Sequence record: GQ981382
Source: Shigella phage SP18
Length of the DNA stretch: 64,000 bases
Strand: one strand, 5' to 3'
Shown: in pieces, positions 4,086 to 61,820 of the stretch
Numbering within the stretch: the first letter of the stretch is position 1
How the letters are laid out: every line of letters starts with the position of its first letter
Made by a program: the position numbers and the translations under genes
Notes under the pieces: generated by a model
What the model saw: only the letters and a program-made list of their open reading frames with translations
Databases searched by the model: none
What the model was told of the DNA's origin: nothing

Positions 4086-4511
4086 TTATTTTTGAGCTTT
4101 GCGGAAGTTGGATGCATATGACTGAACAACAGTCTTTTTGATATCATGGGTGGTAACCAGAACATCAATCAGAGCGCGACGAGCTGCATTATCATTCATA
4201 TCAATTTCTGAAAATGCCTGGAAGCAAATGTCACGAGCGTTACCAGATTTGGACTGGATTTTTTCTTCTTTAACTTCTTCAATTGGGAATTCAATCATTT
4301 CAGCTTGGATTAATTCAATGATAGATTCTTTTGACTGTTTGGTGTTTACCTTCAGTTCAGAATTAAGGGACTTGGCGATGGCAACAATCTGGGTTGAAGT
4401 CAGATGAATAAGTGCATCTTCACGAATGCAGATTTCACATACTTCGTCAGCAACCATTTTGTTGGTGATGCGGGTAACAGAGAATGCAGAGGTCAGGGTC
4501 AGGAAGTTCAT
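4086..4511 (-). CDS. hypothetical protein, paralog of 3559-4002
   Basis: ATG at 4509-4511 with GGAG RBS; C-terminal ...NAARRALIDVLV...VVQSYASNFRK. Confidence 0.55.
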   Translation of the reverse strand: MNFLTLTSAFSVTRITNKMVADEVCEICIREDALIHLTSTQIVAIAKSLNSELKVNTKQSKESIIELIQAEMIEFPIEEVKEEKIQSKSGNARDICFQAFSEIDMNDNAARRALIDVLVTTHDIKKTVVQSYASNFRKAQK

Positions 4512-4542
4512 TTTATTTCTCCAAAGTTTTGTTTGATTCAGT

Positions 4543-4591
4543 GTGTAACTCAGTATGGAATCATTATGCACCCGGTCAATTCGGATGTACA
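4543..4591 (-). promoter_or_regulatory. sigma70-like early promoter repeat (-35 TGTACA, 17 bp, -10 CATAAT, conserved leader)
   Basis: Immediately downstream of minus-strand terminator and upstream of gene 4086-4511. Confidence 0.5.
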
Positions 4592-4630
4592 CTACTTTTT
4601 GAAGAAAATTTCAAATTTATTCGGGGTATA

Positions 4631-4659
4631 AAAAAAGCCCCAACCTTTCGGAAGGGGCT
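4631..4659 (-). terminator. rho-independent terminator (AGCCCC-loop-GGGGCT then U7 on minus strand) downstream of tRNA region
   Basis: Stem 4636-4641/4654-4659, A-run 4631-4636 on plus. Confidence 0.6.
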
Positions 4660-4660
4660 A

Positions 4661-4860
4661 TACCTTGTCGGGGTTCCACCTGCAAGGCAAGTGTTTGTAC
4701 GAAACGCCGGGATTCGAACCCGGTTATTAAGCAGTTGACGCTACTCAATATTTTTAAAAGGCCATATCTCGACCATATCCGAACGTTCCGTCAAAAACGC
4801 TACTCGGCTTACGGCAAAGATATTTCCTCGAATCGATAATTCGGTGCGCCGTTTCAGCTG
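4661..4860 (-). ncRNA. candidate stable RNA with a perfect tRNA-like T-arm (CCGGG-TTCGAAT-CCCGG) that does not fold as a canonical tRNA
   Basis: No ORF over about 300 nt between tRNA cluster and terminator; T-arm at complement 4704-4720; possible acceptor-like pairing CGGAACG/CGTTTCG. Confidence 0.3.
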
Positions 4861-4960
4861 TGAGATAAGGGACTTTAAGAGGTCAACTCATGTACGCCTT
4901 AAAGTCGGGTCTTATTCAGGGAACTTCAGTCCGACGACTTACCGGTAGCGACCCGGTTTC

Positions 4961-5200
4961 TCATTCAATTGTAATAGCTAATTTGACTTTAACAACCTTA
5001 TAATTGGAATCAAGGTCATTGAATTCCATAAAATTTGTTGCTAATCTGCGAGTCGGGAAACTTAGATATTTATTATGCTCAGGTGGAGCAGTTAATGCAA
5101 ACCATGGGACTTGTTTATCATTTTCATCAAACTCATCAAAGCTATAAACCAGCTCGTTGCTGGTTATATCCATAACTGCATATGATTCACTAATAACCAT
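4961..5200 (-). CDS. hypothetical protein
   Basis: ORF track 79 aa immediately downstream of tRNA cluster. Confidence 0.45.
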   Translation of the reverse strand: MVISESYAVMDITSNELVYSFDEFDENDKQVPWFALTAPPEHNKYLSFPTRRLATNFMEFNDLDSNYKVVKVKLAITIE

Positions 5201-5215
5201 AATATCCTCAGTAAT

Positions 5216-5291
5216 TGGTCGAGACAGTAGGGATCGAACCTACGACCTAGGACTTAGAAGGTCCTTGCTCTTCCTTCTGAGCTATGCCTCG
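5216..5291 (-). tRNA. tRNA-Arg (anticodon UCU), CCA encoded
   Basis: Manual cloverleaf: acceptor CGAGGCA/TGTCTCG, D-stem GCTC/GAGC, anticodon stem AGGAC/GTCCT with loop CTTCTAA, T-arm GTAGG-TTCGATC-CCTAC. Confidence 0.8.
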
Positions 5292-5298
5292 TAATTTG

Positions 5299-5370
5299 CG
5301 GACACACATGGATTCGAACCATGGACCAATTGATTAACAGTCAACTGCTCTACCACTGAGCTATGCATCC
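5299..5370 (-). tRNA. tRNA-Asn (anticodon GUU), CCA not encoded
   Basis: Manual cloverleaf: D-arm GCTC-AGTGGTA-GAGC, anticodon loop CTGTTAA, T-arm CATGG-TTCGAAT-CCATG, acceptor with two G-U pairs. Confidence 0.75.
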
Positions 5371-5374
5371 AAAT

Positions 5375-5449
5375 TGGTGGCCCTTGCTGGTTTCGATCCA
5401 GCTACCTATCAGTTATGAGCTGACAGCTCTCCCATTGAGCTAAAGGGCC
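5375..5449 (-). tRNA. tRNA with CAU anticodon (Met or Ile2), CCA encoded
   Basis: Manual cloverleaf: acceptor GGCCCTT/AAGGGCC, D-arm GCTC-AATGGGA-GAGC, anticodon loop CTCATAA, T-arm GCTGG-ATCGAAA-CCAGC. Confidence 0.75.
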
Positions 5450-5542
5450 AATTCTATTATGAAAGGCTCTTTGAGGGAAGAACCTTTGGTAATAGAGGGT
5501 ACTTATTAATAATAACACATAACTCTTAAAGCATATTACTTG

Positions 5543-5944
5543 TTAACCTTCATCAACAATAGTATGTGTATTGGCATTGACAATCTGCCACCAGTCAAAA
5601 CGGTTGGAACCATAACAAGGCTTCTTCTCGTTTTCTTTAATGATAACGCGCAGTTCATCTTCAGTCGCAGCCTTTGCGATTAAGTCAGCATAACCGCCAC
5701 GAGGATAATAGCTATCACCCGCGAACAAAAGGAAATTTACCTTCCCAGAAGGGATATAGGCTTCCTTTGGATACTTGTTTCCTGCATGGTCTACCACTTC
5801 AATATAACGATAAGGAATATCAGTATTTTCAATCCATTGCCACGCCGCGGCAGGAGAATCAAAAGCATCTACACCTAAACGGTTATCTTCATCTTTAGAC
5901 GGGTTATTTTCATAATCCGCATATACATAATATTCAACGTTCAT
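5543..5944 (-). CDS. hypothetical protein
   Basis: ORF track 133 aa; TAATG overlap with upstream small ORF. Confidence 0.5.
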   Translation of the reverse strand: MNVEYYVYADYENNPSKDEDNRLGVDAFDSPAAAWQWIENTDIPYRYIEVVDHAGNKYPKEAYIPSGKVNFLLFAGDSYYPRGGYADLIAKAATEDELRVIIKENEKKPCYGSNRFDWWQIVNANTHTIVDEG

Positions 5945-6063
5945 TATTCACCTTTAGAGATTTTATCCATAACGAAAGAGATTGAACCAATTAAAAATGC
6001 AACTACTAAAGAGATTATATTCTCAGAAGTTGAAAGCATATTCAACATAAAGCCAGCAAACAT
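5944..6063 (-). CDS. small hydrophobic peptide (39 aa), possibly the 3' part of a gene split by a frameshift from the 21-aa ORF at 6065-6130
   Basis: ATG at 6061-6063 without RBS; upstream tiny ORF 6065-6130 has a strong GAGGAG RBS and ends in a T-run. Confidence 0.3.
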   Translation of the reverse strand: MFAGFMLNMLSTSENIISLVVAFLIGSISFVMDKISKGE

Positions 6064-6150
6064 GCTAAAACCAAAAAGCGGTAACAGCAACAAGGGCAGT
6101 AACATTTCTAATTAATTCGCAACGTTTCATTTTATTCTCCTCAGTAGTTG

Positions 6151-6187
6151 ATGGGATAATCATACTACAGTTATCCCATCACGTACA
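6151..6187 (-). promoter_or_regulatory. early promoter variant: -35 TGTACG, 17 bp, -10 TATGAT inside inverted repeat GATGGGATAA/TTATCCCATC
   Basis: Near-duplicate of element at 6484-6521. Confidence 0.45.
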
Positions 6188-6466
6188 CTAAATTTTTGTA
6201 TATTGTCCAGCTTTAACTTTTTTCAGTTCACGAGGGCTTACCGCGTAAGTGAATGGAGCATTCCAGGAAGAACTGACTTTGTAACCTTTAGTCAACATCA
6301 TTGCTGAAACTTTCTTGTTATCAGGACCGTTTTCGCCTTTAACAAGAAACAACTCAAATGCGCCACCATCAACCGGTTTGGCCTTAACCATCAGATATCC
6401 TTTCAGGTCTTCCAGCATATCCGGGTGACTAATTGATTCGTTAATAAATTCTTGATAAGTTTTCAT
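6188..6466 (-). CDS. internal protein (IP) family member with capsid-targeting N-terminus MKTYQEFINE
   Basis: N-terminal 10 aa matches the T4 IP capsid targeting sequence; promoter with TATAAT in hairpin loop upstream. Confidence 0.7.
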   Translation of the reverse strand: MKTYQEFINESISHPDMLEDLKGYLMVKAKPVDGGAFELFLVKGENGPDNKKVSAMMLTKGYKVSSSWNAPFTYAVSPRELKKVKAGQYTKI

Positions 6467-6483
6467 TAGTAGCTCCAGTAGTT

Positions 6484-6521
6484 GATGGGATAATTATACT
6501 GCAACTATCCCATCACGTACA
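6484..6521 (-). promoter_or_regulatory. early promoter variant: -35 TGTACG, 17 bp, -10 TATAAT inside inverted repeat GATGGGATA/TATCCCATC, upstream of IP gene 6188-6466
   Basis: -10 within hairpin loop; followed by GGAG RBS. Confidence 0.5.
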
Positions 6522-6529
6522 TTACATTT

Positions 6530-6812
6530 TTACATTTTTGAACCACGAATTACACCATAAGCGGCGAAGTCGTCAGAAATATCTTTAGGAGAGTTCTTAC
6601 CAGTTTCAATGAAGGCAATGCTTGACTTCTGACTAAAAGAGGTAATTTTGTTATAGTTGGAGTCAAGGAAGGTATAACCATTTTTACGCAGCTGGTCAAA
6701 GTCTTCAGCGTCGCCTTTACCTTTGAAGTCAACCCATTTGTAGGTGTTTTTCTTCTGAAGACCCAGAGGCCAGGTAATTGTTTTCTACCAAAAATTCATG
6801 AAAAGTTTGCAT
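6530..6812 (-). pseudogene. internal protein-like gene interrupted by an apparent +1 frameshift in a 5-nt homopolymer (plus-strand T run 6747-6751)
   Basis: ATG at 6810-6812 gives MQTFHEFLVENNYLASGSSEE then TGA; the remaining 66 codons are open in the adjacent frame and lack any start codon. Confidence 0.5.
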
Positions 6813-6820
6813 TTGAAATC

Positions 6821-7093
6821 CTATTTTAGATAAATTGCGTATTTTTTATAACCAGCCGTCTCATGACGGAGACCCTTGTCATTGGCAAAACGCTCAATGT
6901 TATTAATTTGGTTCTGGTCAAGTTCTGAAATGTCAAACGCGAAAAAGTTGCGTTTGTTACCAATTGTTATATGGTCAGTCAAGTCAATGCTATACAAGTG
7001 ATTGATATTGTCAATCATAGCTTTGACTGCTTTACTAATTTTTACTTCTTCGTTCAGTTGGGACTCGTTGAAAAATTCATTGAAAGTTTTCAT
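6821..7093 (-). CDS. internal protein (IP) family member, N-terminus MKTFNEFFNE
   Basis: ORF track 90 aa; CTS-like N-terminus. Confidence 0.65.
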   Translation of the reverse strand: MKTFNEFFNESQLNEEVKISKAVKAMIDNINHLYSIDLTDHITIGNKRNFFAFDISELDQNQINNIERFANDKGLRHETAGYKKYAIYLK

Positions 7094-7101
7094 AAGAAAC
7101 C

Positions 7102-7434
7102 TTATTTATAAAGTTTTGCCAGTTCTTTACGTCCACGAGCAGACATAATAAATTGTTCATCGCCAATTTTAAAATAAGCCATACCACCGTCAACAGCGAT
7201 ACCAATTTCTTTAGTACCTTCTTTGCCTTTCCACTTGCCACCAGATTTCAGGACAGCTTCAACTGCAGCTTTGGAATATTTGGACGTTTGAAAACGTTCA
7301 TTACCAATCTGAAAGAAAACACCATCTGCATTTTTGGTTAAACCAAATTTCAGAGAGCCTTCACTATCATCAATTGATTTGGTCTCATTGATGGCGGATT
7401 CGGCTAAAAACTCGTTGTAAGTTTTGACGCTCAT
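7102..7434 (-). CDS. internal protein (IP) family member, N-terminus MSVKTYNEFLAE
   Basis: Internal ATG 11 codons into the track ORF; CTS-like N-terminus with L-x-E cleavage context. Confidence 0.6.
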   Translation of the reverse strand: MSVKTYNEFLAESAINETKSIDDSEGSLKFGLTKNADGVFFQIGNERFQTSKYSKAAVEAVLKSGGKWKGKEGTKEIGIAVDGGMAYFKIGDEQFIMSARGRKELAKLYK

Positions 7435-7494
7435 TTTAACTCCGTTTGTTCGTTGGTGTAGGAACATATTACTGCACCTACACTCATTTGTACA

Positions 7495-8182
<688 letters not shown>

Positions 8183-10860: not shown

Positions 10861-11463
10861 ATGCTTTTTTCATTTTTTAACCCTATTGATTATGATGCGA
10901 AAACAATCAGAAAAAACTCGGCATCATTGACGAAAGAAGATGTCTTAAGCATTCCAATGACTGACATCTTCAGAAACTACCGCGCTTATTTCGATAAGGT
11001 CGCTGCTAATTATACACCCAAAACCTATTACATTGCAGGAGCTCCGAGACCCGAAGAATTGGCATATCAGCTCTATGGTAACACACAACTCTATTGGGTT
11101 CTCCTGATGATTAATGACATCTATGACCCTTATTATGGTTGGCTTGGTTCTCAGGAATCATCCTATCAGGCATCTATTCAGAAATATTCGAATGTCGGTG
11201 GTAACCAGGTCCTTTATCATGTGAATGAAGATGGTGAGAAGTTCTGGAACCTTGTATCTTATCCTGATAATCCATACACCTGGTACGATAAAGGTGATAA
11301 GAACAAATTATACCCGCAGTATGAAGGTCCATTAGCTGCAGTGGATATCTATGAAGATGCTATCCGTAAAAATGAATACAAACGCGAAATAAAAATAATT
11401 GACCCGGAAGACATTGAGTCATTTATTTCCGCGCTTATCCGTGAAATGGAGAAGGCTTTATGA
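10861..11463 (+). CDS. 53: gp53 baseplate wedge subunit
   Basis: ATG at 10861 with GGAGG RBS; 200 aa; immediately precedes gene 5 with ATGA overlap. Confidence 0.7.
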   Translation: MLFSFFNPIDYDAKTIRKNSASLTKEDVLSIPMTDIFRNYRAYFDKVAANYTPKTYYIAGAPRPEELAYQLYGNTQLYWVLLMINDIYDPYYGWLGSQESSYQASIQKYSNVGGNQVLYHVNEDGEKFWNLVSYPDNPYTWYDKGDKNKLYPQYEGPLAAVDIYEDAIRKNEYKREIKIIDPEDIESFISALIREMEKAL

Positions 11464-13247
11464 TTAATATGTCAGATAATGTAAGTTGGTTCGTCGGGGT
11501 TGTCGAAGACCGAATGGACCCACTTCAGCAAGGTCGTGTGCGTGTTCGTGTATGGGGTATGCATCCATATGAGAAAGCACAAGGGCCTGTTAAAGGTATC
11601 AGAACCGAAGACCTTCCTTGGATGTCTGTATTGATGCCGACATCATCTGCATCAGTTTCTGGGATTCAAACTGCCATGACTGGTATGGTCCCAGGTACTC
11701 AAGTATATGGTCACTTTTTAGACAAGTGGAAGCTCAACGGTCTTGTTATTGGTACGTATGGTTCAGCCTCAAGACAAAAGGCAAATCCTAACGAAGGCTT
11801 CTCTGACCCTACAGGACAATACCCGCTTTATGTTGGTAATGATGCTGCAGCGCTTAACCGTGGCGGTGAAGTCGGTTATGATGCAACTTCGAACGTAATT
11901 CAGGATGCGAACCTTGACCTTGGTATTAACCCAGATGGTCTTGATTTGAGCCAGGTTAAGCCTGATGATAATCCTAATTTCACAATTGAAAATATGCTCC
12001 ACCGTGATGAAGGTCTTCGACTGAAGGTATATTGGGACACCGAAGGTTATCCTACTATAGGCATAGGACACTTAATTGCACCACAACCTATTAGAGATAT
12101 GAATCAGATAAACAAAATATTATCTAATCAAATAGGCCGTGAAGTTAAAGGTAACCCTGGTGCAATATCAATGGACGAGGCTTCTAAGTTATTCCAAGAA
12201 GACCTTAAAAAAGTCCAAAACGATATAGGTAGGCATAGTGTTGTGGGTCCGGTTTATAATAAAGAAAACCGTTCGAGACAAATGGCTCTTGAAAACATGG
12301 CTTTCCAAATGGGATTAGGTGGATTGGCTAAATTCCGTGGAATGCTTAGCGCAATGTTAGTAGGTGATTATAAAAAAGCATTTGAGGAAGCTCGTAATTC
12401 AGTATGGTTTAACCAAACTAAAGGACGTGCATCAAGGGTATCAATGATTATCCTTACCGGTAATATGGAATCATATGGTATTATGGCTCCTAAAGAAAGG
12501 TCATTTAAAGGGCGTTCATATAGGATGATTCAAACCTTTGCAGCCCCTGCAAATTCTGACCCAGCCGACCCATGGACTCCAGAAGATACACGGATTCTAT
12601 TTAAAGAGCCAGAATCAAGTTACAAGGGCGAATATCCTTACGTGCAGACAATGCAAACTGAAGGCGGTCATATTCAGGAATTCGATAACACCCCTGGACA
12701 AGAACGTTATCGACTGATTCACCCAACCGGTTCCTACGAGGAAGTTGCACCAGATGGTCGTAAGACTTCGAAGACAGTGGCCGATGGTTATTATATGACC
12801 CAGGGTGATTCGAGTACTTACGTTGGTGGTAATAATAAAGTCAACGTTGGCGGTGATGAAACCTATTATAATATGGCTAATGTTCGTCGTCAGACCGATG
12901 GAAACGAAAGCATTCATATTCGTGGGAATGAAACCAAAACTGTAGAAGGTAATGGAACTTTGCTTGTTAAAGGAAATGTTAAAATAGTTATTATGGGTAC
13001 TGCTGATATAACTGTTGAACAAGAAGCATATATTACGGTTGAAAAAGATACAACAGTTAATGTCAACCAGAATGCAGATATAAGTGTTAAACAAAAGGCC
13101 ACAATCAATGCTCAAAATATGGATGTAAATGTCGAACAAGATTTAAATTTTGCAGCGACGAACATTAATTTAAACGCATCAAATACTGTGCATATGGATG
13201 GTGGTTCATTAGCTAAAGTATCTGGTGGCAACGTACAGGTCGGTTAA
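11460..13247 (+). CDS. 5: gp5 baseplate hub subunit and tail lysozyme (cell-puncturing device)
   Basis: N-terminal NVSWFVGVVED...; internal T4-lysozyme-like domain (HRDEGLRLKVYWDTEGYPTIGIGH); C-terminal beta-helix repeats. Confidence 0.9.
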   Translation: MINMSDNVSWFVGVVEDRMDPLQQGRVRVRVWGMHPYEKAQGPVKGIRTEDLPWMSVLMPTSSASVSGIQTAMTGMVPGTQVYGHFLDKWKLNGLVIGTYGSASRQKANPNEGFSDPTGQYPLYVGNDAAALNRGGEVGYDATSNVIQDANLDLGINPDGLDLSQVKPDDNPNFTIENMLHRDEGLRLKVYWDTEGYPTIGIGHLIAPQPIRDMNQINKILSNQIGREVKGNPGAISMDEASKLFQEDLKKVQNDIGRHSVVGPVYNKENRSRQMALENMAFQMGLGGLAKFRGMLSAMLVGDYKKAFEEARNSVWFNQTKGRASRVSMIILTGNMESYGIMAPKERSFKGRSYRMIQTFAAPANSDPADPWTPEDTRILFKEPESSYKGEYPYVQTMQTEGGHIQEFDNTPGQERYRLIHPTGSYEEVAPDGRKTSKTVADGYYMTQGDSSTYVGGNNKVNVGGDETYYNMANVRRQTDGNESIHIRGNETKTVEGNGTLLVKGNVKIVIMGTADITVEQEAYITVEKDTTVNVNQNADISVKQKATINAQNMDVNVEQDLNFAATNINLNASNTVHMDGGSLAKVSGGNVQVG

Positions 13248-38145: not shown

Positions 38146-38573
38146 TGTTTATTATCCCTGATGATTACGAATTAACTCTTGAAAACATTGAAAGTGTTTC
38201 CGAAGAAGCTCAGGGACAATTTGATTCATTATCTGAAGCCTTAGAAAAAGACGATATAAATATTATTGTAGAAAACATGTTTGCAGCCGGTGAATACGAA
38301 AAAGCAACGGTTATCGGCGCTCTGAATGAAGGTGTTCAGCTTAACGAATTTATCGTTAAACATGTATCGTCTCGCGGTGAGTTAACCCGCACAAAAGACC
38401 GAGCTACTCGTAAGCGTAATGCTTTCCAAACAACTGGTCTTTCTAAAGCTAAACGTCGTCAAATTGCCCGTCTGGCTACTAAAACGAAAAGAGCAAACCC
38501 ATCTACGCAAATCAGAGCAGAGCGCAAGCGCAAAAAAGCTCGAGCTAAGCGTAAAGCATTCGGACTTGATTAA
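38145..38573 (+). CDS. 68: gp68 prohead core protein
   Basis: 142 aa in conserved position. Confidence 0.75.
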
Positions 38574-39211
38574 TGGAACAGAAACCAGAGTTACTAATCG
38601 AACACTGGGGTCAACCGGGCGAAATTAAAGATGGTGTACCGATGTTGGAATCTCATGATGGTTCCAGCAGCGGTTTAAAGCCAGGACTTTATATTGAAGG
38701 TATTTTCCTACAAGCTGAAGTTGTTAACCGTAATAAACGACTTTATCCTAAACATATTTTGGAAAAAGCCGTTGCGGACTATATCGCCGAACAGGTTGAA
38801 ACCAAGCAGTCTCTTGGAGAATTAAACCATCCACCTCGTGCAAACGTTGACCCTATGCAGGCGGCAATTATTATCGAGGACATGTGGTGGAAAGGGAATG
38901 ATGTATATGGCCGCGCGCGTATTATCGAAGGCGACCATGGCCCAGGTGATAAACTTGCTGCGAATATAAGAGCAGGTTGGATTCCTGGTGTATCTAGTCG
39001 TGGACTTGGTTCCTTGACTAAATCAGCAAAAGGTTATAGCATCGTTAATGAAGGTTTTAAATTGACGGTTGGAGTAGATGCAGTATGGGGGCCAAGTGCT
39101 CCGGACGCTTGGGTCAAACCAAAGCAGATTACAGAATCACAAACGGCAGTTGCCGATACCAGTGCCGATGACGCCTTTATGGCTCTCGCAGAGGCTTTAA
39201 AGACGTTATAA
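38573..39211 (+). CDS. 21: gp21 prohead core scaffold protein and protease
   Basis: 212 aa as in T4. Confidence 0.85.
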   Translation: MEQKPELLIEHWGQPGEIKDGVPMLESHDGSSSGLKPGLYIEGIFLQAEVVNRNKRLYPKHILEKAVADYIAEQVETKQSLGELNHPPRANVDPMQAAIIIEDMWWKGNDVYGRARIIEGDHGPGDKLAANIRAGWIPGVSSRGLGSLTKSAKGYSIVNEGFKLTVGVDAVWGPSAPDAWVKPKQITESQTAVADTSADDAFMALAEALKTL

Positions 39212-50584: not shown

Positions 50585-51208
50585 TTACATAAACTTAAAG
50601 AATTCTTTAAGCCCCTTAATTACATGGACAGAATGCGCTCCACACTCGCAAGAGATAGGAATAGCCATTTGGACCTGTGGCTTGAGAAGTTCTTCCGTTA
50701 GTGCATTTATATCATCGAGGGTAATTGCATTGTACAGGTCCTCGATTTCGGCTTCATTTAAGTCATCAACAACGATGCGCTCACCGCCTTCCGTGATAAT
50801 ATATTCGATACAACAAGCAATCATTTTTCCTTTATCGCCATCTTCAAACAGCCCAGGATAACGGAATTTAATTTTAAACGCCCCGAAATCACGAATAACT
50901 TCAGACTCATCCACGATGCTTGCGCGACTTATAGTCACAGGAATATCTTGTTCCTTTCCGCACTCACATATCCATGTATGCTCGACGTTAACAGCTCCGA
51001 GACTATTTGCCCAGAGATTAATAAGAAGCAGTTCAGCTTCCTGTTTGTTTAACCCTTTAGCATCAGTGCATTTATTAAGCAGTTCAATTATTGCAGGTTC
51101 CATACGCTTTTCTAATTTTGCTTGAAGCAAATCTTTGTATTCGCGCAAGGTAAAAGCCCTACAATTTATAGTTTTATTTTTAATTTGGACAATAAATTCA
51201 TAAGTCAT
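50585..51208 (-). CDS. 26: gp26 baseplate hub subunit
   Basis: ATG at 51206-51208 with AAGGAG RBS; 207 aa; minus-strand TATAAATA 16 nt upstream. Confidence 0.75.
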   Translation of the reverse strand: MTYEFIVQIKNKTINCRAFTLREYKDLLQAKLEKRMEPAIIELLNKCTDAKGLNKQEAELLLINLWANSLGAVNVEHTWICECGKEQDIPVTISRASIVDESEVIRDFGAFKIKFRYPGLFEDGDKGKMIACCIEYIITEGGERIVVDDLNEAEIEDLYNAITLDDINALTEELLKPQVQMAIPISCECGAHSVHVIKGLKEFFKFM

Positions 51209-51225
51209 AATTTGCTCCTTTACTG

Positions 51226-51237
51226 TATTTATAAATA
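51226..51237. promoter_or_regulatory. palindromic bidirectional late promoter between divergent genes 26 and 51
   Basis: TATTTATAAATA contains TATAAATA on both strands. Confidence 0.65.
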
Positions 51238-51261
51238 TCAATAAAGATAAAAGGGGATTCT

Positions 51262-52014
51262 ATGGCCAATATCGTAAGATGCGAAATGCCAGACGGAGTT
51301 CATCGTTTCAAACCGTTTACAGTCGCTGATTACCGTGATTTACTGCTTGTGCGAAACGACATGAACAACAAACCCGTCGAAGAACAAAAACAATTATTAG
51401 ACGAACTGTTGGAAGATTATTTTGGAGAGTATCCGAAAGCATGGAGGCCATACATATTCTTGAAGGTATTCACTTCCTCTATCGGTAAGACAAAAGTCCC
51501 GGTAGCGTTCGAATGTCAAAAATGTAAAAAGACAAAGCAGACTTTGTTTAATATGAGTCAAGGGCCATTGATAAATCCAACAATGGAAACTGCGGGGATA
51601 AAAATACAATTTAAGTTCCCCGAAGTGGAATATAAAGATAAGTCGGAGCTTGTTCTAAACACCATCCAGACTGTCGAAGACTCAGAACAAAAGTACAATT
51701 GGGAAGACCTTCCTGAAGAAACGAAGATGCAGGTTATTGATGCAATTGATATAGAGAGTCTCGAAGAGCTCCTTAAGAAAATGCATTCAGTTTATATTCC
51801 ATTTACATATGGTTGCTGCGAAAAACACAAAACCGAATATACAGACTTGATTGATGTCTTTAAGCTTATCCTTAACCCGGATGAAGTCTTTGTATTTTAT
51901 CAAATTAACCACTTGCTGGTAAAGAACCAATATACGCTCGATAGCATCATGCACATGATTCCCATCGAACGAGGTATTGCTTTATCGTTAGTTGAGAAGG
52001 ACTTGAAGAAATGA
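51262..52014 (+). CDS. 51: gp51 baseplate hub assembly catalyst
   Basis: 250 aa, divergent from gene 26 with shared palindromic late promoter. Confidence 0.75.
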
Positions 52015-57438: not shown

Positions 57439-57459
57439 GGGACCGAAGGTCCCTTTTTA
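57439..57459. terminator. bidirectional terminator GGGACC-GAA-GGTCCC-T5 between gene 54 (+) and minus-strand gene
   Basis: Hairpin plus T-run; A-run upstream. Confidence 0.7.
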
Positions 57460-57746
57460 TTTGCGGAATGAAATGAAACCTGCTGCAGTCATTACAACTT
57501 CTTTCTTAGCAAAGACTGTAATTGCAATTGGTGCTTCAGATTCAAGTTGCCCAGTTACTACACCATTAAAAATATTTTCTGTTTGTTCAGAATTTACAAA
57601 GTTTTCAACAGGGCGAAGGTCAAACTTCTTATCTTCGCCAAACACGCGCCGCAGTTCATTACCCACCGCGCTGTCAAACTCTTCTGAAGCCGGGATAACA
57701 TTCTCAACTACCAGTTCCTGGCCATTAAAGCGAAAAGATGATTTCA
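57457..57746 (-). CDS. hypothetical protein downstream of alt
   Basis: Internal ATG at 57744-57746 with GAGGAAAA RBS; 96 aa. Confidence 0.5.
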
Positions 57747-57811
57747 TTTTGTTTTCCTCATGTGCAATTGATATGAACATTGTATCGCACTTCCTTGTGC
57801 TTGTAAACCCC

Positions 57812-59872
57812 CTACGAAAGGAATTTAGGAGGAATAGCTTCCAAATTAATACAACTAGCAAGAATACCAAGACCTTGATTGACTTTCTTCGTTACCCCAG
57901 AGGATGCAAACGATGCAAAGTCAACAGATTCTACTGGCTCTTCTGTTTCCTCGCCCTGATAAACGACAAGCTCACCAGTTTCCATCAACACATCACCATC
58001 ATAGATAACTGCATTTTCATCCAGTTGGTCAGTGGTCTGGATATCAGCTTCCAGCATTTTGACGTTCGCGTTTCCTTTATACGAAGCATCCGTAATTTTG
58101 GTAATCTTAACTACAGTTCCACGTGGAAGAATAACTTCCTGCTCGGATGGGTTGCCTGACAATTCCCCAGGAACAATTACGTTAATTAAGTCTGCCCCAG
58201 AAATTTTCCAACCGACATGAATCATTGCGTTGTCCGGGTTTGCACCTGGGATATTTGGTAAAACAATTTCGTCATCAGCCTGGAAAGATGTCCCGTCGCG
58301 ATAGTCCTGATGAACTGCGGCCATAGCAACGTTCGCCACCCAGCCACCAAAGATAATTGGTTTAAATGATGTTGATACATAGTTCCTAAAATAGAATAAT
58401 TTCGACTGTTTAATTTTATTAAATGTAGGAACGTTTAAATATTGACCACGCCAAAGAGTTGTATTAGGTGGCAACTTATGTCCAATTTCAAAGGCCGAAT
58501 CCAATTCCTTAATTGTTTCGACAACTCTGTCTAGATTTAGGAATTCGGTGTCTTCTTCATAATAATTACCCATCAAATAATTATTAATATCGACATAGTT
58601 GGCTCCACAATAATCTGCAATTGCTTCACGCTGGCCATAATGGAAACGGTTGTCAGTATACCCTGCTGTGAAATTAAGAGTATTTTCTGATGCTTCTTCT
58701 GCAAAGTCTTTAACTGCAACACGAATGGCGCTTGTGTATTCTTCTTCCCAGAGCGTGGCTGCATAAGTGGCTGCATCCAGGTTAGGAGGAGCATCATTCA
58801 TTTTTCTTTCGATAAATGCGGCTTTGCGAAGGTTAAGAATCTCTGCACATGATTCGGCAAAAATCTGCATCTGCTTCATACTACCAACTGGAGCACGTTT
58901 AAGTTCGCGATGCATACGGTTAAAAATTGGGTCAGAGTCTTCAACACGAATTTCTTCTTTCCAAACACCATTTGCACGCATAGCCGTATCTGCTGCGCGC
59001 ATACGAGCCATAGTATTCGTTTCGGAAGGTCGAACAAAAATTTCCAGTTCTTCGTAATCATCGATAAGTTCTGCCGTAGCCGGTCGACTAAACTTAGCAG
59101 CTTCTGCATCAATTTCGTCCCAACCTTCTGGCACGGAATCACTTGGAGCGTACTGGGCTTGTGCAATAGCTCGGCGACTGATTTTAGTTTTCTGGGCAAC
59201 AGCAGCATCGGTCTTTTTGTTTGCTGCATCAATCAGAACTTCGGCTGCGATTTCTTGTTTGGAGACTTGTGCGCCTGTATCTTTATTAGTGAATACATCG
59301 CCGACTTTAGTTTCAACTTTTTGATATTTCTCAGGGACCGGTGGCATACCATCAACCGAAAGCAGGTCAACACCCTTTTTGTACATAATTACATAAGCGT
59401 TCTTTTTACCGAGGCCGGAAGCATTCGGAAGAACATGATAACGCCCGCTGGTTTTCATTTGAATCAGTCGATTCATAATACGAATAACAGCTTGGTCTTG
59501 CCCTTTCATCTTTTTGGATGGGAAACGGAACAAGACTACATCAGGTTTGCCTAGTTTAATGCTTTCCCAGACTGTAACAAAAATCAGGTTAATCGCATCA
59601 AGAGGTTTTTCACCTAGACCACCCTTCAGAGGAACAGCATGGCCATGTGAAGTCCCGGATAACAGGAATACCTCGGCAATTGCATCGCCACGTTTATATT
59701 GTTTAACTGTTTCTTTGCCCGTGAATTGCATCAAACGGGCCATAAGAGAATTGGTCCCAGGAACACCGAATTGCCAAACCTGCGGGACCTTGTATTTTGG
59801 ATTCATATTAATGACAGGATAACCGAAGGCTTCGATATATTTGTCAAAGAGTTCATTTAATTGTTCAGACAT
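57812..59872 (-). CDS. alt: Alt-like ADP-ribosyltransferase (virion-packaged), copy 1
   Basis: 686 aa (T4 Alt 682); S-T-S and E-x-E motifs near C-terminus (YVSTSF, SEQEVILPRG). Confidence 0.8.
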   Translation of the reverse strand: MSEQLNELFDKYIEAFGYPVINMNPKYKVPQVWQFGVPGTNSLMARLMQFTGKETVKQYKRGDAIAEVFLLSGTSHGHAVPLKGGLGEKPLDAINLIFVTVWESIKLGKPDVVLFRFPSKKMKGQDQAVIRIMNRLIQMKTSGRYHVLPNASGLGKKNAYVIMYKKGVDLLSVDGMPPVPEKYQKVETKVGDVFTNKDTGAQVSKQEIAAEVLIDAANKKTDAAVAQKTKISRRAIAQAQYAPSDSVPEGWDEIDAEAAKFSRPATAELIDDYEELEIFVRPSETNTMARMRAADTAMRANGVWKEEIRVEDSDPIFNRMHRELKRAPVGSMKQMQIFAESCAEILNLRKAAFIERKMNDAPPNLDAATYAATLWEEEYTSAIRVAVKDFAEEASENTLNFTAGYTDNRFHYGQREAIADYCGANYVDINNYLMGNYYEEDTEFLNLDRVVETIKELDSAFEIGHKLPPNTTLWRGQYLNVPTFNKIKQSKLFYFRNYVSTSFKPIIFGGWVANVAMAAVHQDYRDGTSFQADDEIVLPNIPGANPDNAMIHVGWKISGADLINVIVPGELSGNPSEQEVILPRGTVVKITKITDASYKGNANVKMLEADIQTTDQLDENAVIYDGDVLMETGELVVYQGEETEEPVESVDFASFASSGVTKKVNQGLGILASCINLEAIPPKFLS

Positions 59873-59881
59873 TTTTAACCC

Positions 59882-61756
59882 TTAATTGAGAAGGTGTACA
59901 AGTTTTTCCATAGACAAATCATAAGAGATTCTGTCATATTTTTTCAAAAGCGAATTTGATTCGTCTATCTGGTCATTTTCTAAGATAGAGCATTCAACGA
60001 GAATGTATTTACCCATCGAACCCATCATGCCAGCTGTAGCACCATAGACTTTATCAATCTTAAGCATTGTTCCACGTGGAAGAATAACTTCGGTTTCAAC
60101 GGACCAGTTTGCCAGGTCACCAGGAATAACTACCTTGATATTTTCTGCACCTTTGATAATCATACCAATCTTGATTGTAGGTTTCGCCGAACCAGTTGCA
60201 CTTTTAATAGTTGCATCGATTGCCCCATCATCGATATCACTCGATAATGCATTTGGGTCAAGGTTCGCAGCGGTGTGGCCCATACGACCGAAAATATTTG
60301 GCGCCAGAGATGTACTCGCAAACATAGGAAGATACATCGTTTTATTTTTTATGGAATTAATTGCCATATCGGTTGGCATGACTTGAGCACGGTAGATGAT
60401 AGTTCCTTTTGGAAGCTTAACACCGTTTTCAAATACTTTATCCATATCGGAAATCATTTTGATTTCGCTTTCTTTTGCGTCAGCTTTCCCTAGCAGGAAA
60501 TTATTGATTGCAGTATATTTTCCGCGAGTATACGCCTTAATTGCTTCGGCCTGGTCTTCAGTTATTTCAGGGTTGTCGGAGATATGAAATAATGGTTGGA
60601 TGGCCTTGGTGTAAATTTCATCTGCGATAATACGAATAGCTTCTTTAGTCTTATCTTCGCGCGCCCAGGTCCCCACAATGGAGTCGTCAAGCAACATATC
60701 AGCAACTCTACGCAATGTATCAACAGGATTCTTTGAGGCCCGCAGGACGTTCGAAAACTCACTTATTTTGTGTTCCATGTCAACTTCTTTAAGAGCATTA
60801 AACACATCCATGGCTACACGAGTTTTTGTCTTATCTTCACCAACACCACCTTGTGCAACTAAATCAAAATAGTCTGCATACTCATCACCCGCACGGTCGA
60901 TTACTTTTATTGAAGCTTTAGCTATCTGACTTTCTCTGGCATCATCTGCTGAATGCACTGCGCTACTGGTCGAGAGTTTTGTATAAATCTCTTTGTGCTC
61001 TGGTGAGAATTTAGCAAGGCCAGTTGGTTCGTTCCCCGAATACAATGCGTTAATAGCTGCGCGTTTAGAAAACTTGGTTTTAACAACAACTGCCTGGTCT
61101 GTACGTTTTTCTTCAACCTTTGCAATAGAGGCCGCAATAGCTTCATTCTTGGTAACAGTTTCGCCGGTGGCTTTGTCTACATAAACATCACCGACTTTCG
61201 ATTCCACTTTTGTGTACAATTCGGTATTGATGCCAGGAATTCCGGCGATAGATTCAATTGGTTTGGATTTACGATAAATCAATACGTAAGTATGTTTACC
61301 CGTGTACTGATACATATCATCCAGAACTTTGAACTGACCGCCGGCACGGGCCATAATAAGCCGAGCAAGAACACGCTGAATAGTTCGTTCTTGTCCCTTC
61401 ATTTTGCGGGTCGGGAAGCGGAACATAATTGCATCCATTTTCATCAGTTTTACTTGTTCGTAAACTACATCAAAAATGGATTTAATTGCTCCAATCGGGT
61501 TATCACCAAGACCACCTTTAAGAATAGCTGGAGTACCGTTTGAATTTAATGACATCAAAATAACGTGTGCATACTTATCGCCAGTTTTGACCTGTTTAAT
61601 AGCATCGCCTTCGGATGCGTAAGACACCATACGAGCAATAAGATTATCATTCCCCGGGACCTGGATATTCCAAATCTGTGGAACTTTTGACTTTGAAAGG
61701 TTAATGGCCGGGATATTAGATTCCCCTTCAAAAACCTCTGACAATAATTCGGTCAT
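59882..61756 (-). CDS. Alt-like ADP-ribosyltransferase, copy 2 (tandem paralog)
   Basis: 624 aa; N- and C-termini alignable with copy 1 (FASTSL, VETEVILPRG). Confidence 0.75.
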   Translation of the reverse strand: MTELLSEVFEGESNIPAINLSKSKVPQIWNIQVPGNDNLIARMVSYASEGDAIKQVKTGDKYAHVILMSLNSNGTPAILKGGLGDNPIGAIKSIFDVVYEQVKLMKMDAIMFRFPTRKMKGQERTIQRVLARLIMARAGGQFKVLDDMYQYTGKHTYVLIYRKSKPIESIAGIPGINTELYTKVESKVGDVYVDKATGETVTKNEAIAASIAKVEEKRTDQAVVVKTKFSKRAAINALYSGNEPTGLAKFSPEHKEIYTKLSTSSAVHSADDARESQIAKASIKVIDRAGDEYADYFDLVAQGGVGEDKTKTRVAMDVFNALKEVDMEHKISEFSNVLRASKNPVDTLRRVADMLLDDSIVGTWAREDKTKEAIRIIADEIYTKAIQPLFHISDNPEITEDQAEAIKAYTRGKYTAINNFLLGKADAKESEIKMISDMDKVFENGVKLPKGTIIYRAQVMPTDMAINSIKNKTMYLPMFASTSLAPNIFGRMGHTAANLDPNALSSDIDDGAIDATIKSATGSAKPTIKIGMIIKGAENIKVVIPGDLANWSVETEVILPRGTMLKIDKVYGATAGMMGSMGKYILVECSILENDQIDESNSLLKKYDRISYDLSMEKLVHLLN

Positions 61757-61796
61757 ATTGTTTTCCTTATAAAATATGATGTATTTATACGAAAAA

Positions 61797-61820
61797 GGGC
61801 CGAAGCCCTTTTGTTATTTT
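61797..61820 (-). terminator. terminator GGGC-CGAA-GCCC downstream of DNA ligase (minus strand)
   Basis: Hairpin with A-run on plus upstream side (U-run on minus). Confidence 0.6.

Follow-up and report, generated by a model that had tools for sequence, protein, structure and literature searches.

T4 Alt (gpAlt) is packaged in about 40 copies per T4 virion and ADP-ribosylates the alpha-subunit of RNA polymerase at Arg265. By mass spectrometry, T4 Alt was found to be cut by gp21 at ITE-6 and LTE-619, the latter cut taking 63 C-terminal residues off the protein (PMC5694885; PMC9026906), and the role of this C-terminal tail is unexplained (PMC5694885). A pair of Alt-like paralogs with 43% identity was described in Tequatrovirus 6phi13/SHFML-11, and a reading of "divergent targets" was offered for them (PMC13600099, 2026). 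Here, we analyze a pair of adjacent alt genes, alt624 and alt686, in a stretch of 64,000 nucleotides from Shigella phage SP18 (GQ981382), which we refer to as the window.

Tandem alt genes are widespread in T4 relatives, and both the genes and their multi-copy arrangement are already in databases and literature. The copy numbers of arrays given here rest on the phages that we name, out of 1220 matching phage records; PMC5384007 and PMC8573959 had no relevant information on the number of alt copies. Two tandem alt genes occur in the dhakaviruses JS98, EcWhh-1, and Bp7 (alt and alt' in Bp7), three in the dhakaviruses WG01 and MX01, and two full-length alt genes (alt and "alt.-2") in the Tequatrovirus RB27; across Tevenvirinae, one to three alt genes are held at this locus. 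The statement of the initial annotation that T4 has a single alt is misleading. In the T4 annotation, alt.-1/alt.-2 are described as an old duplication of the alt start (NC_000866). Upon translation, they (NC_000866, 5066-5451) correspond to residues 1-116 of the second alt of RB27 (5601-7658) at 95-97% identity, indicating that the single alt of T4 is a derived, partly deleted state, with alt.-1/alt.-2 being what is left of a second copy, while arrays of two to three genes are annotated in relatives.

Based on the homology, catalytic residues, and fold that we observed, together with synteny, a promoter motif, conserved cleavage sites, phylogeny, and purifying selection, we consider it probable that the SP18 pair comprises two types of T4-family Alt that diverged long ago, both packaged, trimmed by gp21, and injected, and that alt624 was gained as a cassette by recombination or retention and not by duplication of alt686.

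Phylogeny and distribution of the two Alt types

Upon DNA comparison, the region was 99.3% identical to Escherichia phage 212 and 93-98% identical to many VR7/VR20-like phages of the genus Gaprivervirus, subfamily Tevenvirinae, and the window matches Shigella phage SP18 of this genus. We found the two adjacent minus-strand genes of 686 and 624 aa that the initial annotation had described, 9 nt apart, at a position of T4-like synteny between gene 30 (DNA ligase) and alt.-3/gene 54. The alignable N-termini that it had quoted are all present (MSEQLNELF... with KVPQVWQFGVPG in alt686; MTELLSEVF... with KVPQIWNIQVPG in alt624), as are the C-terminal motifs YVSTSF...SEQEVILPRG and FASTSL...VETEVILPRG. 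In a pairwise alignment, which it had proposed as a check and for which we used BLASTP, the proteins were 32% identical across 638 aligned positions (E=3e-86), far beyond chance. The substantial difference claimed for the stretch between the termini was borne out, with an identity of 43% for the N domain, ~9% for the middle region, and 30% for the ADP-ribosyltransferase (ART) domain.

That both genes are Alt homologues is supported by BLASTP over their full length, by Pfam PF03496 (ADPrib_exo_Tox; E=5.8e-20 for alt686 and 2.5e-15 for alt624), and by PHROG 802 ("Alt-like RNA polymerase ADP-ribosyltransferase"), which was matched over the full length by residues 1-685 of alt686 (E=5e-225) and residues 1-603 of alt624 (E=2e-199). 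The alt624 protein has the same sequence as "RNA polymerase ADP-ribosylase [Shigella phage SP18]" (UniProt E3SF15), and the alt686 homologues in phage 212 and VR20 are likewise annotated as Alt-type ADP-ribosyltransferases. Neither protein was matched by NCBIfam, and a sequence search of the PDB returned only a marginal match to VIP2 (1qs2, E=0.0028) and no solved Alt structure. In precomputed Pfam tables, each of the Alt homologues is additionally assigned to PF26846. We ruled out an assembly artefact, as the arrangement is repeated in the independent GenBank records of phages 212, P896, PSD2001, and DCP80, with divergence that is mainly synonymous.

The initial annotation had read the pair as a tandem duplication, which our phylogenetic comparison did not support as an event in this lineage. 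We used a reference alignment of 21 Alts, composed of both window copies, T4 Alt, and 18 others. Identical proteins aside, alt624 comes closest to the first alt copy of Dhakavirus WG01 (ORF201) at 63% identity, whereas its neighbor alt686 reaches only 30-32%, and alt624 and WG01 copy 1 form a group with a bootstrap value of 100 in the whole-protein and ART trees and of 76 in the N-domain tree. With 97% amino acid identity to the VR20 alt, alt686 represents the resident alt gene of Gaprivervirus, and it groups with VR20 and with copy 2 of MX01 (bootstrap 100), the latter being 65% identical overall, 86% in the middle region, and 77% in the ART domain. The other groups with a bootstrap value of 100 were T4 with Bp7 copy 2; JS98 copy 1, MX01 copy 1, Bp7 copy 1, WG01 copy 2, and Mosigvirus JN02; and JS98 copy 2, MX01 copy 3, WG01 copy 3, and EcWhh-1 copy 2. 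As alt624 and alt686 fall into separate groups at bootstrap 100, we conclude that they are two different, old Alt types, which we denote type E and type C, respectively.

The distribution of alt624 is sporadic. We found it in five gapriverviruses (SP18, 212, P896, PSD2001, and DCP80), and both genes were covered in three of the 96 DNA matches listed, while about 50 other gapriverviruses (e.g., VR20, VR7, VR25, VR26, and the TH series) cleanly lack alt624 and carry alt686 alone. In VR20 and TH54, the junction reads AAGGAA-CCTATT-ATG(alt), whereas in the window CCTATT is replaced by AACAAT, alt624, and the spacer GGGTTAAAA; no flanking repeats were seen in VR20 and TH54 where the 6-nt CCTATT takes the place of the 1.89-kb alt624 cassette. 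Type E is represented by two protein clusters in a database of 5.8 billion proteins. In the N-domain tree, alt624 and WG01 copy 1 stand outside the clade of Dhakavirus and Mosigvirus (bootstrap 100), as expected for a cassette that is foreign to both genera. Among its carriers, alt624 showed a ratio of nonsynonymous to synonymous substitution rates (dN/dS) of 0.02-0.03, with 107 synonymous and 8 nonsynonymous differences to DCP80, indicating strong purifying selection. A pseudogene was rejected for alt624, given its dN/dS of 0.02 and its intact motifs. In DCP80 itself (PQ671644.1; record of 140,978 bp), the alt686 homologue is shortened to 426 nt and followed by rIIA-side genes (4387-6872), which is probably a deletion or a misassembly.

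We suggest that alt624 is an accessory cassette of another Alt type that sits in the promoter-proximal slot, like its 63%-identical relative in WG01-like dhakaviruses, and that it would have come to this slot by phage recombination or because an old member of the array was retained.

Domains, processing, and expression

Both copies keep the catalytic signatures. In the 21-Alt alignment, R475, S500-T-S502, and E577-Q-E579 of alt686 and R456, S481-T-S483, and E554-T-E556 of alt624 align with R478, S503-T-S505, and E574-M-E576 of T4 Alt, such that a loss of catalytic residues in one copy, which the initial annotation had named as a finding that would speak against it, did not occur. The E-x-E motif is typical of arginine-directed ADP-ribosyltransferases, and both proteins would be NAD+-dependent mono-ADP-ribosyltransferases directed at arginine. 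The other 19 Alts conserve these catalytic elements as well, with variation in S-T-S: the "type D" copies (JS98 copy 2, WG01 copy 3, MX01 copy 3, and EcWhh-1 copy 2) have S-A-S, and Bp7 copy 2 has S-T-A, in each case with R and E-x-E retained (loci JS98 6001-8127, WG01 10990-13113, and Bp7 5001-7055).

Structure prediction, also proposed as a check, gave one shared architecture for the two proteins. The AlphaFold2 models of alt624 (predicted local distance difference test, pLDDT, 79.4; predicted TM-score, pTM, 0.69) and alt686 (pLDDT 81.2; pTM 0.73) have three parts in common, namely an alpha/beta N domain, a helical middle of ~200 residues, and an ART beta core. A Foldseek search of the PDB matched the ART domain of the alt624 model to C3 exoenzymes (C3bot), Vis, VIP2, CDTa, and iota-Ia; Foldseek covered the alt624 model, and the ART assignment of alt686 rests on its PF03496 match and on a secondary-structure pattern as in alt624. 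For the N domain and the helical region of alt624, Foldseek gave no informative fold match in the PDB or in BFVD, the latter yielding other phage Alt-like proteins. In sequence, the alt624 N domain is 64-71% identical to its counterparts in Dhakavirus, Klebsiella-phage, and Erwinia-phage Alts, and its middle region is 22-57% identical to that of WG01 copy 1. Among the BFVD matches were "split" Alts of the Acinetobacter T4-like phages ZZ1 (I3WW50) and Henu6 (A0A410T5F4 / A0A410T542), in which the N-terminal and ART parts are separate genes, another sign of Alt modularity.

At both columns of the T4 gp21 sites, we found [L/I]-x-E in all 21 aligned Alts. The predicted sites are LSE-7 and IDE-599 in alt624 and LNE-7 and LDE-619 in alt686, and each of the two products would carry propeptides at both ends, the N-terminal one of 7 residues, with predicted mature masses of 64.9 kDa (alt624) and 68.4 kDa (alt686). 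In both AlphaFold2 models, low pLDDT values occur precisely around these sites. A conserved C-terminal tail of 54-67 aa (YDGDxLMETGEL...ILASCID...PxKF) is present in 19 of the 21 Alts, including that of Acinetobacter phage KARL-1, and the alt686 version is 67 aa long. The short tail of alt624 is itself conserved with WG01 copy 1 (YDRIxY..SMEKLxxL). The window holds a T4-type head module in which the gp21 protease gene is adjoined by scaffold and gp23 genes, and the gp21 homologue is expected to act in trans on both Alt proteins. Both would be incorporated in the prohead core, undergo trimming by the gp21 protease, and enter the host along with the injected DNA.

The two genes would be read from a single late promoter upstream of alt624. 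The T4 late-promoter consensus TATAAATA occurs 21 times in the window vs 4.8 expected, and our motif search found none within 57812-61756, that is, neither between nor inside the alt genes. Because the match upstream of alt624 is the sole such motif near the pair, alt624 and alt686 most likely share one late transcript; the late promoter is here a motif match. A separate alt686 promoter was rejected, given the lack of TATAAATA in this interval and the 9-nt spacer. For alt686, a Shine-Dalgarno-like sequence (AAGGG) arises from the TAA stop codon of alt624 together with the spacer. In VR20 and TH54, the same late-promoter element precedes the single alt, and the hairpin directly downstream of gene 30, which resembles a terminator, is kept identically upstream of it. 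Elsewhere in the window (51226-51237), two copies of TATAAATA, one on each strand, overlap (TATTTATAAATA) between the divergent open reading frames (ORFs) 50585..51241 (-) and 51262..52014 (+), which looks like a back-to-back late-promoter pair.

Features of the alt locus and of the gp21 gene in the window (residue numbers refer to the unprocessed proteins)
Feature	Position	Strand	Remarks
alt624	59882..61756	-	624 aa, ATG start; Alt-family ADP-ribosyltransferase, type E; accessory, promoter-proximal
alt624 predicted N-terminal propeptide, residues 1-7	61736..61756	-	MTELLSE, ends L-S-E; pLDDT <50 at residues 1-12
alt624 N-terminal alpha/beta domain, residues 8-235	61052..61735	-	
alt624 helical middle region, residues 236-396	60569..61051	-	hypervariable
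alt624 ART catalytic domain, residues 397-591	59984..60568	-	Trp551 at ARTT position -3
alt624 predicted C-terminal propeptide, residues 600-624	59885..59959	-	SNSLLKKYDRISYDLSMEKLVHLLN, after I-D-E599; pLDDT <50 at residues 595-612
alt686	57812..59872	-	686 aa, ATG start; Alt-family ADP-ribosyltransferase, type C
alt686 predicted N-terminal propeptide, residues 1-7	59852..59872	-	MSEQLNE, ends L-N-E; pLDDT <50 at residues 1-15
alt686 ART catalytic domain, residues 413-612	58037..58636	-	Asn574 at ARTT position -3
alt686 predicted C-terminal propeptide, residues 620-686	57815..58015	-	after L-D-E619; tail YDGDxLMETGEL...ILASCI...PxKF
GC-rich hairpin and T run	61792..61811	-	AAAGGGCTTCGGCCCTTTTT; directly downstream of gene 30 (DNA ligase) stop codon
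T4 late-promoter consensus	61782..61789	-	TATAAATA; 26 nt upstream of alt624 ATG
Shine-Dalgarno-like AAGGAA	61763..61768	-	upstream of alt624
9-nt intergenic spacer	59873..59881	-	GGGTTAAAA; without promoter motif
alt.-3 homologue, ORF downstream of alt686	57457-57780	-	Pfam DUF5498, E=1.2e-33
gp21-type prohead serine protease	38573..39211	+	Pfam Peptidase_S77, E=6.6e-102

A 137-aa TTG-initiated ORF (57457..57870) at the position of the alt.-3 homologue overlaps the alt686 stop and is probably over-extended. Far from the alt locus, the window contains a cluster of three minus-strand tRNA genes (5216-5449; Arg-TCT, Asn-GTT, and Met-CAT).

Alternative readings of the pair

Our explanation, two old Alt types that are both packaged and injected, has to be held against a number of points that speak in the other direction. 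The trees are neighbor-joining trees with bootstrap of 21 sequences and not of the full-likelihood kind. Within the gapriverviruses, the synonymous divergence (dS) of alt624 is 0.14-0.32 vs ~0.1 for alt686, which would be as compatible with a long residence accompanied by repeated losses, or with repeated exchange, as with a single recent import; the values of up to 0.32 argue against a very recent single import. The tail of alt624 consists of 25 residues that are unrelated to the conserved Alt tail, as does that of WG01 copy 1 with 30 aa, and if the conserved tail is needed for packaging or for the control of activity, the behavior of alt624 may differ from that of T4 Alt. Furthermore, while both copies look functional, their enzymatic activity is a prediction, and we infer packaging, cleavage, and injection of both Alts from indirect sequence evidence.

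The alternative that survives best is an ancestral multi-gene array: the Gaprivervirus ancestor would have had both types, and most of its descendants would have deleted alt624, as T4 did with most of its second copy. We regard this as rather unlikely, although it draws on the higher dS of alt624 compared to alt686, on the alt.-1/alt.-2 relic that documents the loss of an array member in T4, and on the slot of the type-E gene, which is shared by two genera. Against it, the junction in VR20 and TH54 is identical (CCTATT) and holds no trace of alt624, type E is confined to two clusters among 5.8 billion proteins and to a minority of both genera, and the N-domain tree places WG01 copy 1 and alt624 outside Dhakavirus and Mosigvirus, as for an imported cassette.

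ModA and ModB act after infection, and it is conceivable, if improbable, that alt624 is not packaged or injected but stays in the producing cell, where it would be late-acting or serve as a non-enzymatic structural or decoy protein. The replacement of the tail conserved in 19 of 21 Alts by 25 unrelated residues would fit this notion, as would the unexplained role of the tail in T4 (PMC5694885). By contrast, the N-terminal propeptide and both cleavage motifs are kept at aligned positions, the N domain is 64-71% identical to those of other Alts, the catalytic residues are intact, and the short tail is conserved with WG01 copy 1, while the strongly purifying selection and the predicted co-expression with alt686 from the late promoter likewise point to a packaged enzyme.

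That alt was locally duplicated in tandem within this lineage and then diverged rapidly is very improbable: the genes lie side by side on one strand, with full-length homology and one architecture, and at some time depth all Alt types must come from duplications, but the identity of alt624 to WG01 copy 1 (63%) is twice that to alt686 (30-32%), with a bootstrap value of 100, the N domains of alt624 and alt686 are 43% identical vs 63-88% among copies within Dhakavirus genomes, and alt624 is cleanly absent from most Gaprivervirus members.

Exchangeable parts and comparison with known systems

We found the parts of Alt to have separate histories. The N-domain tree follows the phage lineage, whereas the ART tree follows types across genera, and the two trees disagree. 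The clearest case is copy 2 of MX01 (4998-7043), which is a chimera by sequence: it is 25-55% identical to alt686 over residues 1-220, 78-100% over residues 221-340, 60-88% up to residue ~620, and lower in the C-terminal propeptide, while its N domain is 88% identical to that of MX01 copy 3. With a breakpoint near residue 221, it combines a Dhakavirus-type N domain and C-terminal end with a middle region and ART domain of Gaprivervirus type, indicating a recent exchange between genera. This pattern suggests a delivery or packaging role for the N domain and terminal propeptides, which follow the lineage, and suggests that the helical middle and the ART domain act as a payload that can be exchanged.

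Substrate recognition in C3 and iota toxins involves an aromatic residue at position -3 of the ADP-ribosylating turn-turn (ARTT) loop. At this position, which lies three residues ahead of the first catalytic Glu, Trp551 is found in alt624 and Trp553 in WG01 copy 1, while alt686 has Asn574 and T4 has Pro571; Tyr occurs in the type-D copies and in Acinetobacter phage KARL-1, and Phe in Proteus phage PM2. Because the middle regions of the two window copies are only ~9% identical and the residue at ARTT -3 is Trp vs Asn, it is plausible that alt624 and alt686 differ in target preference, as the initial annotation had proposed, and the two payloads would most likely modify partly different host proteins. 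More tentatively, the alt locus of Tevenvirinae might be an exchangeable effector-cassette system, in which the parts that follow the lineage (the N domain and the gp21-cleaved propeptides) deliver horizontally traded payloads, and type E might be a payload class, with its short C-terminal propeptide and ARTT Trp, that modifies another host protein, possibly a defense or stress factor instead of RNA polymerase. Such a target would account for its sporadic, accessory distribution.

As a genome feature, the alt pair adds little, since both proteins are annotated and tandem alt genes have been discussed in at least one paper. Its value lies rather in a natural experiment on the Alt C-terminal propeptide, as two Alts that are predicted to be co-expressed differ mainly in having the conserved 67-aa tail or an unrelated 25-aa tail. 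In addition, the termini that track the lineage around an exchanged payload hint at how delivery and target choice are divided among the parts of Alt, a division of relevance for the loading of T4 heads via Alt or capsid-targeting sequence (CTS) fusions and for mapping the targets of injected ADP-ribosyltransferases.

Compared to T4 Alt, both window copies show homology over the full length (36% identity for alt686 and 33% for alt624) and share the R-S-ExE residues, the locus between gene 30 and alt.-3/gene 54, the late-promoter motif, and the gp21 sites. They differ from it in that neither is of the T4 type in the ART tree, where T4 pairs with Bp7 copy 2, in that their middle regions are essentially unalignable with that of T4 (11-22% identity), and in the short and different C-terminal propeptide of alt624. 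The other tandem arrays resemble the window pair in locus, orientation, gene spacing (0-9 nt), and a single promoter region before the first copy; in the two-gene array of JS98/JS10, the matched copy is labelled "altb". The order of type E followed by type C was seen, among these arrays, only in the five alt624 carriers. WG01 has the layout of JS98 plus a type-E gene in the promoter-proximal slot, where alt624 lies in the window. This gene, ORF201 (631 aa), is the first of three alt genes and resembles alt624 in its slot, its short tail, and its Trp at ARTT -3, but it is only 22-48% identical to alt624 in windows starting at residues 261-321, and it is followed by two other Alt types, whereas alt624 is followed by type C.

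Beyond the phages, a comparison can be made with the bacterial ADP-ribosylating toxins C3, VIP2, iota-Ia, and CDTa of the R-S-E clade, which matched alt624 with a Foldseek probability of 1.0 and a target-normalised TM-score of ~0.6 at a sequence identity of 14-19%. Unlike these toxins, the Alts additionally possess an N domain (~230 aa) and a helical region (~200 aa), and their delivery is from the phage head and not by secretion or through a binary-toxin pore. With polymorphic toxin and effector cassettes, the likeness is one of analogy only, as the alt locus is without immunity genes or an orphan-cassette structure and as whole genes along with internal segments move, but in both cases a constant delivery module is joined to a variable payload, and the alt arrays hold several payload types.

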